From positions 1,710,001 to 1,742,000 of the forward strand of contig CP060262.1 of the NCBI GenBank assembly GCA_022646745.1: DNA of 32,000 bases, in the 5' to 3' direction. Positions within the stretch are counted from its first letter, which is position 1; each line of letters begins with the position of its first letter. The translations under genes were made by a program, and so were the position numbers. The notes under the pieces are model-generated. The model did not search any database and was not told where the DNA came from. It saw only the letters and a list, made by a program, of their open reading frames with translations. Shown piece after piece: positions 1,133 to 28,921 of this stretch. Origin of the DNA: Planctomycetales bacterium. Lineage in GTDB: Bacteria > 4484-113 > JAFGCY01.

Positions 1133-2821
1133 CTACCCCAGACCCTTCTCCATCTGTTCCCTGACCACCCCTGCGATCTGGCGGGACTGCGCCATCGCCG
1201 CATCGGCTTCCTCGCGGACCTTCGCGCGGTATTCGCTCTTCTTCGGCATCGAGTTGGTATTGATCAGCACGTTGTAGTATGCGCCTTCCGCGCAGGCCAG
1301 CGCCATCGCGGCTCCAGTGCCTGCATCCGACAGTGCGTTCTGGTTGCCCTTTTCGGCGACTTCGCGGCAGAGTTCCAGGGTTTCCACGCAGCGCTTCAGC
1401 GTTGCCAGCGGTACTTCGGTCACGCCGACGGTCGCCTGCTTGATCGCGGCTGAGCGCGCCTTCTGCTCCTCGTCAGTGTTCTTCGGCATGCCGAAGGTGT
1501 CCATCAGGATGTTGAATGCCGCGGTGTCATCGTCAATCGCGCGCAGGTATTCATCCTTCAGCTGCTGCGCCCGCGTTGCGATCCGGTTCATGTCCTTCTT
1601 CACCGGCGCATAGCCCGGCTTGCCGACCGTCAGGTTCGGCACCATCGCTGCAAGACCCGCCGCCAATGCGCCGGCCAGGGCGGCCACCGAGCCACCACCG
1701 GGGGCCGGGCTGACAGAGGCCAGCTCCTCCACGAAGTCCGTCACGCTCATCTTTGCCAGCGGCCGCACACTGTCGTCAATCGCATACTCCACGATGCGTT
1801 TCTGCGGATCGAACTCGCCCAGCTCAGTCAGGCCCAGCGTCTGGATGGCAACGCGCACCAGCTCGCGCTCACTCACCCCGGTGCAGACCTTCTTCTGCTT
1901 CCTGAGGAAATGCCGCCCGGCATCCGTCAGCGCGGACAGCGGGATCAGCCCGACCAGCTCACTGCCGGTCACCCTGAGGCCGTACTCCCGCGCCAGCTCG
2001 TCCACCTTGTCAAACACCACATGCAGCGGGCTGGCGTTCAGGTCCGTCACATTCATCGTGATCTGCGCGCACTGGTACTCGTCAATGTACCAGCCCATCG
2101 CCTTCAGGCCCTTGTACAGGCCCGGCGCGTAGACATCGTTTCCATCCGCGTCCTTAACGAACTTCCCGTGCTCATCGCGCGCCTGGCGGCCCTTTTCGCG
2201 GATCGTCCAGGCGATAAGGTTCACGTTGTACAGCGCCTTGGTGTTGAAGTTGATGTTGTAGGCCACGAGGAAGTTGCGCGCGCCCACCGTCACCACTCCC
2301 GTCCTGGCAACGCTGTCACTGAACTCATTCGGGCCGTAGTCCGGCCGCCACTCCTCTGTGCCGAGCTTGCCCTTCAGCGCCTCGTATTCCCCATGCCTCA
2401 CATTGGCGAGGTTCCGCCATTCCGGCTTGCGCGCCGCATGCTCATACAGCCAGACCGGGATGCCAAGCTCGCTGCCAACCCGCTCGCCGAGCCGCTTTGC
2501 CAGCTCGACGCACTCAGCCATTTCCACGCCCTGCACAGGCACGAAGGGGCAGACGTCGGTGGCGCCGTGGCGCGGGTGCTCACCATGCTGGCGGGACATG
2601 TCAATCAGCTGCGCGGCCTTCCGCACCACGCGGAACGCGGCTTCCAGCACAGCCTCCGGCTCGCCGGCGAAGGTGATCACCGTGCGGTTGGTGTCATGCC
2701 CGGGGTCGACGTCAAGCAGCGTGACGCCGTCCACCGCCGCCGCCTCCTGGGCCACAGTGTTGTATACATGGGGGTCGCGCCCGTTCGAGATGTTGGGCAC
2801 GCATTCAACGATCTTCAGCAT
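1133..2821 (-). CDS. ftcD: bifunctional glutamate formimidoyltransferase / formimidoyltetrahydrofolate cyclodeaminase
   Basis: 562 aa. The N-terminus MLKIVECVPNISNGRD...TNRTVITF is typical of the formiminotransferase domain. The alpha-helical C-terminal ~200 aa resembles the cyclodeaminase domain. Strong GC3 bias. Confidence 0.88.
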   Translation of the reverse strand: MLKIVECVPNISNGRDPHVYNTVAQEAAAVDGVTLLDVDPGHDTNRTVITFAGEPEAVLEAAFRVVRKAAQLIDMSRQHGEHPRHGATDVCPFVPVQGVEMAECVELAKRLGERVGSELGIPVWLYEHAARKPEWRNLANVRHGEYEALKGKLGTEEWRPDYGPNEFSDSVARTGVVTVGARNFLVAYNINFNTKALYNVNLIAWTIREKGRQARDEHGKFVKDADGNDVYAPGLYKGLKAMGWYIDEYQCAQITMNVTDLNASPLHVVFDKVDELAREYGLRVTGSELVGLIPLSALTDAGRHFLRKQKKVCTGVSERELVRVAIQTLGLTELGEFDPQKRIVEYAIDDSVRPLAKMSVTDFVEELASVSPAPGGGSVAALAGALAAGLAAMVPNLTVGKPGYAPVKKDMNRIATRAQQLKDEYLRAIDDDTAAFNILMDTFGMPKNTDEEQKARSAAIKQATVGVTEVPLATLKRCVETLELCREVAEKGNQNALSDAGTGAAMALACAEGAYYNVLINTNSMPKKSEYRAKVREEADAAMAQSRQIAGVVREQMEKGLG

Positions 2822-2839
2822 GCGACCATTGTCGCATGC

Positions 2840-3126
2840 TCAGGGATCGGGTACCTGGGACCGGGGACCAGATGAGAGACAGATGTGAGGGACCCGGGAC
2901 CAGCCTGAGGTCAGATTTCACAGTATCGCTACCTTGTTCCTGGGGTCAGGAATCCACCATTTTTCAGTGGCGTGGTTCCTGGGACCGGAGTGGAGTCAAT
3001 GGTATGAGTTTTCGTTCCGGCTCCCTGATTCCTGCTCCCTTCTTCTGGTCCCAGGTCCCGGGTCCCCGGTCCCTGATTCCCGGTCCCTACTTCTGGTCCC
3101 AGGTCCCGGGTCCCCGGTCCCTGATT
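2840..3126. repeat. ORF-less intergenic cassette bounded by GGGACCN-heptamer inverted repeats
   Basis: 2840-2871 pairs with 3093-3124 read backwards at 28 of 32 positions, plus 2 G-T pairs. The left arm is G-rich with a 7-nt period (tcaggga tcgggta cctggga ccgggga). The right arm contains a 48-nt unit x2 (3031-3078 and 3079-3126). The cassette ends 1 nt from the truB stop codon. Confidence 0.85.
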
Positions 3127-4127
3127 TATCCGAGTACTTTCTCCGGGCGCAGCTCGACCAGGCCCTGCGGGGTCACGCCGTGGAACTGCAGCACCGCCAC
3201 GAGCTCACGACCGTCCAGTGCGAACACGGTGTCCCCCTCGCCGTAGCTGCCCGGCGGCAGCGCCTTGCGCGGGCAGCGGATGCCCATTCCGTTGCGCAGC
3301 ATCCCGCACTGCTGGGCGTCCAGCTGCAGGCTGGCCTGGCCATTGGCAATCGCGCCGAGCGGCTCAAGCAGGTCCTCCACAGTCGCGCCTTCCTCCAGCC
3401 GCGCCGCCACATCCTCGAGCCGCATCGCATCATCGAGGCTGAACGGGCCGACGCTTTCGCGGCGCAGCCGACCCATGCAGCCGAGGCTGCCGAGGTCCGC
3501 CGCCACATCGCGAGTCAGCGAGCGGATGTACACCCCGCCACGGCCCAGCACCCGCACGCGCGCGCGTGCCAGCGGGCCGATCTCGTCGATGCGCTCCAGC
3601 AACTGGCTGTCCTCCCAGAGCACATCCTTCGGGTCCAGCCCGCTTTCGAAGTCCAGCAGCTCAGAAGAGATCACCTCTACCTGCTTCGGCTGCACCTCCA
3701 CTTCCTCGCCGGCCAGTGCATAGCGGTACAGTTCGCGCCCGCCGACCTTGGTTAGGCTGAAGGCGGGTGGGATCTGCTGCAGCTCACCGGTGTACTGCGC
3801 CAGCATCGCCGCGAACTGCTCGCGCGTCGGCAGCGGCTGCTCGCTGACGGCGGACAGCTCGCCCGCCAGGTCGTCGGTGGTTGTTGACATGCCGAGGATG
3901 AACTCCCCGGTGTAGCTCTTCTCGAAGCCGGCGAAGTGCTGGAACAGTCGGGTGGCGCGGTTGATCCCGACCACCAGCACGCCGGTCGCCGGCTTGTCCA
4001 GCACGCCTGAGTGCCCCATCTTGCGGATGCGCAGCATGCGCCGCAGCTCGCGGATCACGTCAAAGGAGGTGATCCCGGAGGGTTTGTCAATTGTCAGGAA
4101 GCCGCTCGGGCCGTTGTTGCCACTCAT
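3126..4127 (-). CDS. truB: tRNA pseudouridine(55) synthase
   Basis: 333 aa. GFLTIDKPSGITSFDV and GHSGVLDKPATGVLVV (catalytic Asp motif) are present, with a C-terminal PUA-like extension. Lies downstream of rbfA-nrnA. Confidence 0.92.
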   Translation of the reverse strand: MSGNNGPSGFLTIDKPSGITSFDVIRELRRMLRIRKMGHSGVLDKPATGVLVVGINRATRLFQHFAGFEKSYTGEFILGMSTTTDDLAGELSAVSEQPLPTREQFAAMLAQYTGELQQIPPAFSLTKVGGRELYRYALAGEEVEVQPKQVEVISSELLDFESGLDPKDVLWEDSQLLERIDEIGPLARARVRVLGRGGVYIRSLTRDVAADLGSLGCMGRLRRESVGPFSLDDAMRLEDVAARLEEGATVEDLLEPLGAIANGQASLQLDAQQCGMLRNGMGIRCPRKALPPGSYGEGDTVFALDGRELVAVLQFHGVTPQGLVELRPEKVLG

Positions 4128-6924: not shown

Positions 6925-6925
6925 A

Positions 6926-7136
6926 GGTTGCAGGGTGCAGGGAGCAGGTTGCAGATCCGGGATGAGGTATGCGGGATGTGGGATGTGGGAGCGCGTAGCG
7001 CAGGCATGCGTAAGCCTGACACAGCTGCGCATTTGCGGGAAGCGGAGGGGTGCAACTTGCTTGCACGCAATGCAATGGTAGAACGGAGGTGCGACACTGG
7101 CTGTCGCATCTCCTCATCCCCCATCCCTCATCCCGC
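6926..7136. repeat. ORF-less cassette bounded by GGGATGN-type heptamer arrays
   Basis: Nine in-phase G-rich heptamers span 6926-6988 (ggttgca gggtgca gggagca ggttgca gatccgg gatgagg tatgcgg gatgtgg gatgtgg). C-rich heptamers span 7107-7134. 6971-6990 is complementary to 7117-7136 at 17/20. The interior holds strong hairpins, for example ggaggtgcgaca-ctggc-tgtcgcatctcc at 7085-7113. Confidence 0.8.
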
Positions 7137-8519: not shown

Positions 8520-8532
8520 GGTCTAACTATAA

Positions 8533-8881
8533 GGGATGGGGGATGCGGGATGGGGGATGGGGAGGGTGCGTCACGCCACGGCGTGACTTGCGCACAATGG
8601 GATGGGGGATGCGGGATGGGCAGAATGGGATGTGGGATGTGGGATGGGCAGTAGTCAGTGGGCAGGGAGACTTAGCGGCGACATGTTGTCGCCTGATCTT
8701 CCAGGAACCTATCCGCTCAATGCCGTCTGGGAGGCGTAGGGCAAGGCCATCGTGCCTTGCCCAGGATGGCGACAGCCATCCGGTTGGAAAGCACTTGCCA
8801 AAATTGCTGTCGCCTATGCCGACAGGCACAGGCTTGCGATCTTCATCTGCTCATCCCGCATCCCCCATTCCACATCCCTCA
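8533..8881. repeat. cassette bounded by GGGATGN heptamer arrays, with hairpins and a 55-nt conserved element inside
   Basis: G-rich heptamers span 8533-8566 and 8599-8667 (gggatgg gggatgc gggatgg gcagaat gggatgt gggatgt gggatgg gcagtag tcagtgg). C-rich heptamers span 8852-8878. 8533-8559 pairs with 8852-8878 at 23/27 plus 1 wobble. The last heptamer runs directly into the stop codon (tca, 8879-8881) of the PKD gene. Confidence 0.85.
8731..8785 (+). repeat. conserved 55-nt GTAG-headed double-hairpin element (REP-like), copy 1
   Basis: The sequence is gaggcGTAGggcaaggccatcgtgccttgcccaggatggcgacagccatccggtt. It has a 9-bp stem gggcaaggc/gccttgccc and a 7-bp stem ggatggc/gccatcc. It matches the reverse complement of 16742-16796 at 48 of 55 positions. 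Confidence 0.8.
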
Positions 8882-11600: not shown

Positions 11601-11635
11601 TCAGGGACCTGGGACCGGGGATCTGGGACCGGGGA
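11601..11635. repeat. left inverted-repeat arm (GGGACCN heptamers) of the four-helix-bundle cassette
   Basis: The arm reads tcaggga cctggga ccgggga tctggga ccgggga. 11601-11630 pairs with 12311-12340 at 26/30 plus 1 G-T. Confidence 0.85.
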
Positions 11636-11714
11636 AAGCCAATGCCTACTGGAGTATCGAGCTGGTTTGGTAATCTGTGCGGTTCTTGCGCTATTTACAA
11701 AAATGAGGAAATAA

Positions 11715-11743
11715 TTGACTTTATTGTAGTTACAGGTTACTAT
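11715..11743 (+). promoter_or_regulatory. sigma70-like promoter for the four-helix-bundle gene
   Basis: TTGACT (11715-11720), a 17-nt spacer, then TACTAT (11738-11743), in an A/T-rich patch. AGGAG lies at 11761-11765. Confidence 0.55.
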
Positions 11744-11772
11744 ACAAATGTACACACTAAAGGAGCGTGCAA

Positions 11773-12150
11773 ATGGATGCAGTTTCTTACAAGGACCTGA
11801 TTGTCTGGCAACTGGCAATGGATTTCGTTGCAGAGATCTACCGGCTCACCGGATCATTCCCGAGGGACGAAATGTACGGGATGACTTCACAGATCCGCAG
11901 GGCAGCGGTTTCCATTCCTGCCAACATCGCGGAAGGCAATGGCAGGGCGAGTCGGCGGGATTATGCCCACTTCGTGTCCATCGCCCTTGCTTCAGCCAGG
12001 GAGATTGAAACCCTGCTACTGATATCCAGGGGGCTCGGATTCATTTCCAGCGGACATGCTGAAGAGTTAGACAGCAAGCTGGATGAAATTGCGAGGATGC
12101 TGTTCAGCATGCACCGTAAACTGGCAACACCGGTAGTTGGCACAAACTGA
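11773..12150 (+). CDS. four-helix-bundle protein (23S rRNA intervening-sequence protein / DGR Avd family)
   Basis: MDAVSYKDLIVWQLAMDFVAEIYRLTGSFPRDEMYGMTSQIRRAAVSIPANIAEGNGR.S.RDY..F..IA.AS..E is the hallmark pattern of this family. ATG at 11773 is 7 nt after the AGGAG; the track start at 11767 is a GTG. Confidence 0.85.
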   Translation: MDAVSYKDLIVWQLAMDFVAEIYRLTGSFPRDEMYGMTSQIRRAAVSIPANIAEGNGRASRRDYAHFVSIALASAREIETLLLISRGLGFISSGHAEELDSKLDEIARMLFSMHRKLATPVVGTN

Positions 12151-12220
12151 TGCAGGAAGCTGGGCCGGATCGGAGTCGGTGACACTGAGCCTTGTTGTCA
12201 GACTCTCGTATGACATCTTG

Positions 12221-12340
12221 CCGGTCCCAGATCCCCGGTCCCTAGTCCCTTCTTCTGGTCCCCGGTCCCTGGTCCCTTCTTCTGGTCCCCGGTCCCTGGT
12301 CCCTTCTTCTGGTCCCCGGTCCCCGGTCCCTGGTCCCTCA
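12221..12340. repeat. right inverted-repeat arm (NGGTCCC heptamers) with a 27-nt unit x3
   Basis: The unit cccttcttctgg... recurs at 12247, 12274 and 12301 (period 27, which is three heptamers plus tcttct). The terminal 30 nt are complementary to 11601-11630. A 9-bp hairpin agtagctcc-gca-ggagctact (12341-12361) follows and overlaps the aminotransferase stop codon. Confidence 0.85.
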
Positions 12341-20028: not shown

Positions 20029-20108
20029 GGGCGAGTGGCGGAATTGGCAGACGCGCCAGACTTAGGATCTGGTACTTCGGTGTGGGGGTTCGAGTCCCCC
20101 CTCGCCCA
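20029..20108 (+). tRNA. tRNA-Leu (anticodon UAG), class II with long variable arm
   Basis: Manual fold: acceptor gggcgag/ctcgccc, D arm gcg-gaattggcaga-cgc, anticodon arm ccaga-cTTAGga-tctgg, variable arm tacttcggtgt, T arm ggggg-ttcgagt-ccccc, discriminator A. CCA is not encoded. TATAAT at 20015-20020 lies just upstream. Confidence 0.88.
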
Positions 20109-20118
20109 GATCCTTTTG

Positions 20119-20386
20119 CCGTCTCGTGCGAGCACTCGACGGTCCTAGGGCGCGCAGCCACTTCGGGAGCCTGCTCCCTCAGTGCTGCAGGCACTGATTC
20201 CAATTGAGCACATTGCAGTCTCGTGCGAGCACTCGACGGTCATGGGGCGCGCAGCCACTTCGGGAGCCTGCTCCCTCAGCGCTGCAGGCACTGATTCCAA
20301 TTGAGCACATTGCCGTCTCGTGCGAGCACTCGACGGTCTTGCTTCGCGCAGCCACTTCAGGAGCCTGCTCCCTCAGCGCTGCAGGC
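20119..20386 (+). repeat. 97-bp tandem repeat, 2.8 copies, starting 10 nt after the tRNA
   Basis: Units start at 20119, 20216 and 20313 and are near-identical, differing at about nine positions between the first two copies. Each begins c(c/a)gtctcgtgcgagcactcgacggtc, followed by a 6-7-nt variable patch (ctaggg / atgggg / ttgcttc) and a gggag-cctg-ctccc hairpin. The third copy is truncated at 20386. Confidence 0.9.
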
Positions 20387-28648: not shown

Positions 28649-28667
28649 GGGAGAAGTGTAGGGGAAA

Positions 28668-28775
28668 CCAGTGGTCAGTAGTCAGTGGTCAGAAGTCAGA
28701 TCGCATTCTTCCTGACCACCGACCACTGACCACCGACCACTGACCACCGACCACTGACCACCGACCACGGACCAC
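28668..28775. repeat. hairpin-forming inverted heptamer arrays (CAGTNGT / NNGACCA), right arm 14-nt unit x4
   Basis: The left arm is ccagtgg tcagtag tcagtgg tcagaag tcag (28668-28699). The loop is atcgcattcttc. The right arm is ctgaccaccgacca x4 (28712-28767) plus cggaccac. There are 26/32 Watson-Crick pairs on the plus strand. Four of the six mismatches are A-C, which become G-U on the minus strand. Confidence 0.85.
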
Positions 28776-28921
28776 TATGCTTCAATCGTGCACAAATGGA
28801 CGATCACACGGCCTGCACACGATAAAATCACTTCCGCAGACATACATAGGACCAGCACACAGCAGAATCCCGGCCCGGTCGAGGTCCGACCGCACATCAG
28901 GGGCCGGCAGCAGGAGCGGAT

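Follow-up and report, generated by a model that had tools for sequence, protein, structure and literature searches.

We analysed a window of 32,000 nucleotides of DNA from Planctomycetales bacterium (contig CP060262.1, positions 1,710,001 to 1,742,000 of the forward strand), in which a 285-base element at positions 2840-3124 nearly fills the 304-nt spacer between truB and ftcD. The element consists of two inverted heptamer arrays and contains no credible open reading frame (ORF). Judging from its architecture and placement, we lean, with some reserve, towards the view that it would be transcribed as a double-stranded RNA stem for processing or stability between the two genes. By its sequence, 2840-3124 can be assigned to a published, functionally unexplained class of intergenic inverted heptamer repeats.

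Anatomy and placement of the truB–ftcD element

The outer arms of the element (2840-2871 and 3093-3124) form 28 Watson-Crick and 2 G-T pairs over 32 positions, which reproduces the count given in an earlier note made on this DNA from the sequence alone. A repeat search stretches the inverted repeat to 33 nt, with 88% complementarity between 2840-2872 and 3092-3124. Each outer arm is an array of four GGGACCN units: the left arm (2840-2872) reads TCAGGGATCGGGTACCTGGGACCGGGGACCAGA, and its partner on the right (3092-3124) is (NGGTCCC)x4 ending in TCCCTGA, which becomes the G-rich 5' arm in the truB/ftcD mRNA (minus strand). The 48-nt unit that the same note had seen in the right arm is present 2.3 times with 93% matches (Tandem Repeats Finder score 190) and takes up the whole right side (3017-3126); the unit is composed of four heptamers and a CT(T/A)CTTCTGG punctuation. 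The partner of an inner left block, AGGGACCCGGGACCAG (2888-2903), is the inner one of the right-arm unit copies (3045-3066), and the minimum free energy structures agree on this pairing. Between the two sides lies a unique interior (2904-3013) with a GC content of 0.51 versus 0.62 for the window (G+C 61.7%), in which no ORF, no similarity to the other DNA retrieved, and no remnant of a four-helix-bundle (4HB) gene was found. For the GGGACCNGGGAYC word, 23 occurrences were counted in the window where 0.66 would be expected, all of them within 2850-3121 and 11604-12337.

On the minus strand, 2840-3124 folds at -156 kcal/mol (z -6.1 versus dinucleotide shuffles), and on the plus strand at -167.6 kcal/mol (z -6.5); the predicted fold of either strand is one long imperfect hairpin. 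As the earlier note had stated, no credible ORF is present in the element, the overlapping frames being a 38-aa ORF that runs into ftcD and long plus-strand ORFs antisense to truB and ftcD. Rfam 15 gave no match for the element, either at the gathering threshold over the whole window, where the sole match was a tRNA, or at E <= 1 over 2780-3170.

Both neighbouring genes lie on the minus strand and are supported by Pfam, namely truB upstream in transcript order (3126-4127; TruB_N, 2.3e-37) and ftcD downstream (1133-2821; FTCD_N/FTCD/FTCD_C). One nucleotide separates the element from the truB stop codon, and 18 nt separate it from the ftcD start codon, in agreement with the previously reported distances; in transcript order its right arm is the 5' arm, straight after the truB stop. 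A promoter scan of 2600-3400 detected no promoter-like site, and a terminator scan of the same region detected none on the mRNA strand and a single weak terminator-like site on the plus (antisense) strand. Since the two genes are co-directional with no promoter-like or terminator-like signal for the mRNA between them, 2840-3124 is most likely transcribed in the truB-ftcD RNA.

Beside the element, and not part of it, a perfect 10-bp hairpin (AGCAUGCGAC-AAUG-GUCGCAUGCU) is located at 2817-2840 on the minus strand. The ftcD start codon sits within the 3' arm of this hairpin, and no Shine-Dalgarno motif was seen upstream of it; such a motif is likewise missing at a beta-CASP gene (start 8519) and a dehydrogenase gene (start 28648) of the window, and the 4HB gene described below has AAGGAG.

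Heptamer arrays in the window, at orthologous loci, and across genomes

Period-7 self-similarity was observed in 9 regions of the window versus 0-2 regions for any other period from 4 to 12. The nine regions resolve to five intergenic inverted heptamer-array elements with four different words, and four of the five elements are ORF-less. In addition to 2840-3124 and an ORF-bearing cassette at 11601-12340, sister elements are located at 6925-7134 (an AGGTTGC array, then GGGATGN ... CATCCCN), at 8533-8878 (GGGATGG/CATCCCN), and at 28666-28780 (a short CAGTGGT/GACCACY hairpin without a GGG tract). The element at 8533-8878, which lies 0 nt from the stop codon of a PKD-domain gene and 14 nt before the start of the beta-CASP gene, has the same layout as 2840-3124. 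The G-rich arms of the window elements match G3N3-5G3N3-5G3N3-5G3, a canonical G-quadruplex (G4) motif, and 9 of the 12 such motifs in the window fall in heptamer elements. Public metagenome contigs of the same organism terminate inside the heptamer arrays, as expected for repeated DNA. Over ~8 kb beyond one side of the window, no new GGGACCN copy was found; the one further element there is intergenic and has the word GAATAGT/ACTATTC (L228 18931-19286, ~6 kb past the right window end). A 97-nt unit repeated 2.8 times (94% matches) was also seen at 20029-20386, starting 8 nt past a tRNA-Leu gene (20029-20108).

The cassette at 11601-12340 (plus strand) has a left arm of (GGGACCN)x4 ending in GGGGAAAG (11601-11636) and a right arm of a 27-nt unit repeated 3.7 times (12223-12340), which enclose an ORF for a 4HB protein (11773-12150, plus strand; PF05635/TIGR02436). 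Its likeness to 2840-3124 is restricted to the arms, where 3031-3074 and 12295-12338 share a 44-nt match of 91% that includes the CCCTTCTTCTGGTCCC punctuation, i.e., more than the bare heptamer. The two elements thus agree in their word, in the terminal unit, and in an arm punctuation specific to the lineage, and 2840-3124 is indeed an ORF-less relative of the cassette, as the earlier note had proposed. The identical tip that it had also claimed needs a correction on one side: the right tip of the cassette is TCCCTCA, not TCCCTGA. The tip itself is only a variant of the unit.

A search of the ORF-less interiors for a decayed 4HB gene (81-homologue profile, hmmsearch --max, six-frame translations) gave negative scores throughout, and a sensitive blastn search of ~40 kb of this genome and all fetched loci found no other copy of the interior 2904-3013. 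The 11773-12150 protein is distantly related to the diversity-generating retroelement (DGR) accessory protein Avd and gave no match to a transposase, a nuclease family, or a defence system (PADLOC). The identical 4HB protein was found in a single context, shared by all of the 10 places shown from the 23 contigs read. The 27-nt right-arm unit (12232-12331 in the window) varies in copy number between metagenome samples (L129, L131); depending on the sample, 206 or 179 nt lie between the 4HB stop codon and an aminotransferase gene. In contrast to this variation, 2840-3124 showed no polymorphism in one strain contig of 99.1% identity, in which the element is identical. Within the loaded cassette, the AT-rich stretch 11637-11772 (39% G+C) contains a promoter close to the consensus (TTGACT-17 nt-TACTAT) and, as a strong ribosome-binding site, AAGGAG; in most other cassettes, the array and the start codon are too close together to accommodate a promoter.

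Relatives whose TruB homologues are 76-82% identical keep the truB-ftcD synteny, and every spacer is different. The spacer of the window (304 nt) holds inverted GGGACCN arrays. That of L140, with a TruB of 82% identity, has 59 nt and no arrays, and those of L136 (158 nt) and L137 (186 nt) have inverted GGTTGGA/TCCAACC arrays around interiors unrelated to each other. L230 carries GGTTTCG arrays, in which the contig ends, and L229 has a 476-nt mosaic of GCAGGGW arrays, GGGACCA arrays with GAAGAAGG punctuation, and CTCCAAC arrays. The sole spacer part retained is the ftcD leader CATGCGACAATGGTCGCATG or variants of it, whatever else fills the spacer. It had been suggested that deep conservation of this spacer would mean a locus-specific regulator; as the relatives' spacers are not deeply conserved and differ in every case, the spacer is not a conserved regulator of this locus. 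The L140 spacer is not a clean empty site but has 40 nt of unrelated sequence, and a simple history of insertion or excision is therefore unreadable from it. On comparison of these sequences, the truB–ftcD spacer appears as a site where heptamer-array elements recur and are replaced or remodelled.

Several further observations were made at these loci. The leader forming the 2817-2840 hairpin is intact in L136 and degraded in L140 and L137. A short GC-rich hairpin (e.g., TCTGGCCGGGGGCCAGA) stands directly after the truB stop, before the arrays, in L136/L137 (7003-7019), L229 (~1265-1280), and L230 (~2604-2620), and is absent in the window and L140. L229 (1240-1770) contains two copies of a ~75-nt sequence (AAGCCGCCGGACATSCCGGGTGGGG...GGCGGGGATG...), apparently another small repeat family. 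At the beta-CASP locus, the CATCCCN array before the gene abuts a leader motif, GCATCCCTTATAGT, that is conserved in the window, L136, and L137, and the array has ~1 unit in L137 (1078-1767), ~8 in L136 (1477-1807), and ~12 in the window (8520-8878). This array looks as if it had been expanded in place from a heptamer seed already there.

The earlier note had looked to further copies with these termini as a sign of a mobile family. Although further copies with the same word are present in many genomes, they do not represent a single mobile sequence. A scan with the pattern GGGACCNGGGACCNGGGACC, using one genome per species, yielded at least 119 loci with GGGACCN x3 arrays in Xanthomonadales, Acidobacteriota, Gemmatimonadota, Geobacter, Planctomycetota, Chloroflexota, and others. 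Among the matches listed, to which the following counts refer, the hosts include Xanthomonas, Pseudoxanthomonas, Stenotrophomonas, and Geobacter; array pairs are ordered G-rich-then-C-rich in 55 cases and in reverse in 15, with loops mostly of 30-200 nt; and ~50 of 55 convergent pairs in the other genomes are ORF-less. Over 54 pairs, 'TCA' preceded 4 of 108 arm ends, the outer flanks were heterogeneous, and neither target-site duplications nor a conserved terminal motif was found. The TCAGGGA tip is therefore a unit variant (GGGATCA) and not a family signature.

At four of the listed loci, the loop is 383-479 nt long and codes for a PF05635 protein, at orthologous positions in Xanthomonadales (L067 6380-6900, L044 5170-5700, L088 480-1100, and L011 4290-4820). 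At these four loci, which cover at least two genera, the arrays are strictly 4+4: the 4HB gene lies between exactly (GGGACCN)4 and (NGGTCCC)4, and the inner end of the left arm, GGGAAA(G), is as in the 11601-12340 cassette. The product of the gene downstream of the cassette starts with MPKRTDLK, which we read as that of carB, and the upstream neighbour is presumably carA. With a protein family of solved structure (2gsc), this cassette upstream of carB offers a tractable experimental model.

The association of such arrays with PF05635 genes was surveyed by searching metagenomes with an alignment of five 4HB proteins, and 80 loci were kept. Period-7 arrays occur on both sides of the gene in 27, and on one side in 14, of the 64 PF05635 loci with enough flank. 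They number 2.17 per kb up to 300 nt from the gene versus 0.17 per kb farther off, and they are present in 62 of 111 gaps adjoining a PF05635 gene versus 3 of 23 other intergenic gaps at the same loci (p = 1.7e-4). An inverted repeat with a net score of at least 14 surrounds 58 of 67 PF05635 genes (87%) versus 1 of 67 controls, in which upstream and downstream flanks were taken from different loci. The bracketing words differ from locus to locus and mostly form heptamer arrays of ~4-6 units; upstream and downstream words are complementary at 6 or more of 7 positions in 23 of 31 cases (4.7% in controls), and on the upstream side G-rich words predominate (22 cases, with C-rich words in 4). Words without a GGG tract also occur around 4HB genes (AGTACAT, TTAGCTT, GCTGAAA, and CAGTTGC). 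Word similarity rises with 4HB protein identity (r = 0.27, permutation p < 0.0005). The closest 4HB proteins are encoded at syntenic loci, and their words are 1-2 bases apart in every unit. Two of these loci have words matched between the arms, GGGGACT/AGTCCCC in one and GGGGAGT/ACTCCCC in the other, and a third has GGGGATC upstream. As the words shift gradually, in all units and in both arms, these changes point to concerted, compensatory evolution in place, not to hopping.

The contexts of these genes are diverse. On plasmid pANA02 of Anabaena sp. 90 (L222; NC_019429.1 43768-45133), a 4HB gene lies between cas6 and cas4 and is flanked by CAGGTGA/TCACCTG arrays. On plasmid AZO_p2 of Azospirillum lipoferum 4B (L226; NC_016586.1 13898-15239), an unannotated PF05635 ORF lies in an apparent 23S rRNA gene as an intervening sequence (IVS), bracketed by inverted CAGAGGA/CGGAGGA-type heptamers. 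A Gemmatirosa plasmid record provides a further context. Because ORF-less arrays are the majority form, in the window (four of five) and elsewhere among the matches listed, and because PF05635 genes are bracketed by such repeats, the sequences fit best with 11601-12340 being a 'loaded' form of a generic hairpin cassette, a possibility that the earlier note had offered as its second choice.

Proposed role of the stem and competing explanations

We propose that 2840-3124 would fold, within the truB-ftcD RNA, into a long imperfect double-stranded stem reaching from 1 nt past the truB stop to 18 nt before the ftcD start. This stem may act as an RNase III substrate and/or as a barrier to exonucleases, and cutting by RNase III or the exonuclease block would then uncouple the stability and the expression of the truB and ftcD cistrons. 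The heptamer elements themselves would arise and turn over in place through heptamer slippage and arm-to-arm homogenisation, with occasional exchange between elements having the same word. One may also reason that, with the G-rich arm leading on both strands, a C-rich stretch that could attract Rho would never be exposed unpaired. Three roles had been suggested for the stem in the earlier note. Of these, a processing site and an insulator are plausible in view of heptamer hairpins that are cut by RNase III (PMC4990558, PMC12721329), whereas an intrinsic terminator is not supported, as a U-tract and a terminator-like site are lacking on the mRNA strand.

Several points weigh against this role. 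Over 59 cassette stems, sense-strand G-U and A-C mismatches numbered 28 and 30, respectively; with no G-U excess, adaptation of the stems to one RNA strand is not apparent. Compared with the mRNA strand, the plus (antisense) strand of 2840-3124 folds slightly better, and each G-rich arm is also a canonical G-quadruplex motif that could compete with the stem. Complementarity of the arms would be explained equally well by a structure at the DNA level or by purely mechanistic homogenisation of the arms. The relative L140 lacks the element, which is therefore dispensable at the truB–ftcD locus. Moreover, a regulatory role of the Xanthomonas repeats was not found by Rehm et al. (PMC4692102).

The earlier note described 2840-3124 as a miniature inverted-repeat transposable element (MITE)-like, non-autonomous derivative of the 11601-12340 cassette; mobilisation together with that cassette would be a variant of this description. 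Long terminal inverted repeats, the punctuation and terminal unit held in common with a cassette 8.5 kb away, the breaking of metagenome assemblies within arrays, and the absence of the element from the same locus in L140 are all in line with this description. Furthermore, PF05635 cassettes are found in a 23S rRNA gene, beside the putative carB, and between cas6 and cas4, and must therefore have moved over evolutionary time, and one pair of 65%-identical 4HB genes has only the cassette, not the flanks, in common. We nevertheless regard it as an unlikely origin. Target-site duplications are absent at both 2840-3124 (flanks GTCGCATGC and TTTATCCGAG) and 11601-12340 (flanks CTCAATAC and AAGTAGCTCC), and the putative autonomous partner is a 4HB protein with no transposase or nuclease family match, found in one genomic context in all 10 places shown of the contigs read. 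The interior 2904-3013 has no second copy in ~40 kb of this genome or in the loci retrieved and contains no 4HB remnant, the tip is not conserved in the family, and L140 is not cleanly empty at the site. In addition, orthologous loci exhibit gradual drift of the word rather than presence or absence of one sequence. A different possibility, to which we also assign a low probability, is that the arrays act as non-B DNA, i.e., as G-quadruplexes (with i-motifs on the C strand) or as a cruciform, and affect replication, transcription, or the binding of nucleoid proteins. That every G-rich arm fits the G3N3-5 motif, that such motifs in the window are concentrated in heptamer elements, and that ~four units per arm correspond to the four-tract requirement would be expected under this possibility; oligonucleotides of the Xanthomonas and Nostoc repeats form G4 in vitro (PMC4692102), and the missing wobble strand bias together with the palindromic G-rich-first rule suits a symmetry at the DNA level. 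However, words without GGG are found in the same architecture (CAGTGGT, AGTACAT, TTAGCTT, GCTGAAA, and CAGTTGC), and G4 formation is therefore not the common denominator; the conserved feature is instead the complementarity of the two arms.

The elements might also be a functionless by-product, in which slippage-prone heptamers and inverted duplication by template switching accumulate neutrally in permissive spacers and the hairpin is unselected. The fast turnover, the mosaic spacers, and the total absence of an element in one relative would follow readily, as would the copy-number polymorphism of the 27-nt unit between metagenomes and the ~1/~8/~12 units at the beta-CASP locus against the conserved GCATCCCTTATAGT leader, as if expanded from a seed; that a regulatory role was not found in Xanthomonas (PMC4692102) points in the same direction. 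What makes this improbable is the regularity of the elements: matched changes in both arms at orthologous loci, strict 4+4 arrays at four Xanthomonadales loci in at least two genera, the orientation rule (55 versus 15 among the matches listed), consistent placement against stop codons (also described in PMC4692102), and bracketing of 87% of the sampled PF05635 genes. If neither selection nor a dedicated mechanism were at work, these regularities would be difficult to explain. As for the partner protein, the pentameric PF05635 product of 11773-12150 might recognise its own word, GGGACCN, with the ORF-less element serving as a second site for binding, processing, or propagation. Word and arm details are common to both elements of this genome, nearly all PF05635 genes are enclosed by arrays with a word that is particular to the locus and co-evolves with the protein, and the solved homologues 2gsc and 2rld have five chains each, beside arrays of ~4-6 units. 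Avd, the DGR accessory protein to which the family is related, binds nucleic acid. A Xanthomonas S23p structure is also cited as a homopentamer (PMC4990558). This is, however, very doubtful, since ORF-less arrays far outnumber 4HB genes and several words occur per genome, the window having four words and one 4HB gene. Xanthomonas has ~186 GGGAATC arrays (PMC4692102), while the word on the flanks of its 4HB gene upstream of carB is GGGACCG; the correlation between word and protein is attributable to shared descent at syntenic loci, and Coxiella S23p is probably not even translated (PMC4990558).

A broader proposal, which we rate as improbable, is that the arrays and the pentameric PF05635 4HB proteins form one two-part system, in which each protein binds, processes, or generates and spreads its own 7-nt word. 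If this were true, the 23S IVSs, the cyanobacterial and the Xanthomonas/Geobacter repeats, and the ORF-less elements would be its cis sites or satellites, and the 11773-12150 protein would act on both GGGACCN elements of the window.

Comparison with known repeat systems

The repeats of Xanthomonas and Geobacter are the nearest published relatives. Xanthomonas genomes contain ~185 GGGAATC-type heptamer repeats each, including 70-75 convergent inverted pairs, which are mostly located between co-directional ORFs and near an ORF end, are transcribed, form G4 in vitro, and have no known function (Rehm et al. 2015, PMC4692102). Geobacter metallireducens has 49 copies of GGGACCG x4, termed Gmet_H4## (Aklujkar et al. 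2009, PMC2700814). In these simple sequence repeats (SSRs), as in 2840-3124, tandem 7-nt units with a GGG tract are arranged at ~four per array in two convergent arrays capable of forming a stem-loop (88% complementarity between 2840-2872 and 3092-3124), and they lie in intergenic spacers, for the most part flanked by co-directional ORFs and no more than ~50 nt from the end of one. They are also dispersed and vary in length between relatives, like the window elements, and the word GGGACCG is itself the Geobacter word (PMC2700814). The differences are that the host here belongs to an uncultured group, one relative being labelled 4484-113, that 2840-3124 has a higher-order 48-nt unit and a 110-nt unique interior, and that many words occur within 32 kb. 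In the passages searched of PMC4692102 and PMC2700814, no link of the repeats to PF05635 genes or rRNA intervening sequences was found.

The 23S IVS of Coxiella burnetii, in which an S23p (PF05635) ORF is located, is excised by RNase III through cuts in its 28-bp terminal stem (Warrier et al. 2016, PMC4990558); its GACAGAT heptamer number varies by strain, and a Leptospira IVS is cited in the same paper. Like the heptamer cassettes, such an IVS is closed by a long stem of terminal inverted repeats, with a 4HB ORF in the loop in some cases, and tandem heptamers are located in the terminal stem, as they are in 2840-3124. The 11601-12340 cassette has exactly the S23p-IVS design, with the PF05635 ORF in its loop at 11773-12150. 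ORF-less versions of IVSs also exist, e.g., in Salmonella. Unlike the IVSs, which occupy helix 25 or 45 of 23S rRNA, the window elements are placed in mRNA intergenic spacers, and 2840-3124 has neither a PF05635 ORF nor a remnant of one; excision by RNase III, demonstrated for the Coxiella IVS, would apply to 2840-3124 by analogy.

In Haemophilus influenzae, RNase III cleaves an (ATCTTTC)n hairpin in the hmw 5' untranslated region and downstream expression changes, and variation of the repeat number requires both RNase III and the hairpin (Rapun-Araiz et al. 2025, PMC12721329). The hmw repeat resembles 2840-3124 in that a heptamer array forms an arm of a long hairpin beside a start codon, transcription having been shown for hmw. 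In hmw, however, the SSR is in one arm only, has at least 11 units, and belongs to a phase-variation locus, whereas both arms of 2840-3124 are arrays of ~4 units and no variation was seen in the one 99.1%-identical strain contig.

Repetitive extragenic palindromic (REP) sequences and REPINs are short imperfect palindromes with a conserved 5' tetranucleotide that are mobilised by the REP-associated tyrosine transposase (RAYT). With these and with MITEs, 2840-3124 has in common that it is small, ORF-less, intergenic, bounded by inverted repeats, capable of forming a hairpin, and, as is often the case for them, located past a stop codon. It differs in having no target-site duplication, no cognate transposase of insertion sequence or RAYT type, and no conserved terminus, and its class differs in having tandem arrays of element-specific words as arms around unrelated interiors. 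The element-specific heptamer arms and the lack of a conserved terminal motif do not agree with a REP/REPIN identity.

The heptamer tandem repeats of cyanobacteria are known as short tandemly repeated repetitive (STRR) sequences. Examples are the GGGGA(C/T)T repeats of Nostoc (PMC4692102) and TAACTGA repeats (PMC4679880). As in the window, intergenic heptamer arrays are abundant and several words occur per genome, and 4HB genes on cyanobacterial plasmids, e.g., that of Anabaena sp. 90, are flanked by such arrays. Unlike the window, the published accounts stress direct arrays, with few inverted pairs in Nostoc, and AT-richer words.

Our literature search, mostly outside subscription journals, found only a single-locus note on Coxiella linking PF05635/S23p genes to flanking heptamer arrays, and nothing linking the Xanthomonas/Geobacter repeats to IVS-type cassettes. 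Alone, the truB–ftcD element adds one case to the intergenic inverted heptamer repeats, which have been catalogued and never explained. Its value lies in being an entry point to a coupling, across phyla, of this repeat class with PF05635 genes and rRNA IVSs. Taken together, the bracketing of PF05635 genes ties the S23p-bearing 23S IVSs to the heptamer repeats of cyanobacteria, the 'quadruplex' repeats of Xanthomonas, and the multicopy heptamers of Geobacter.

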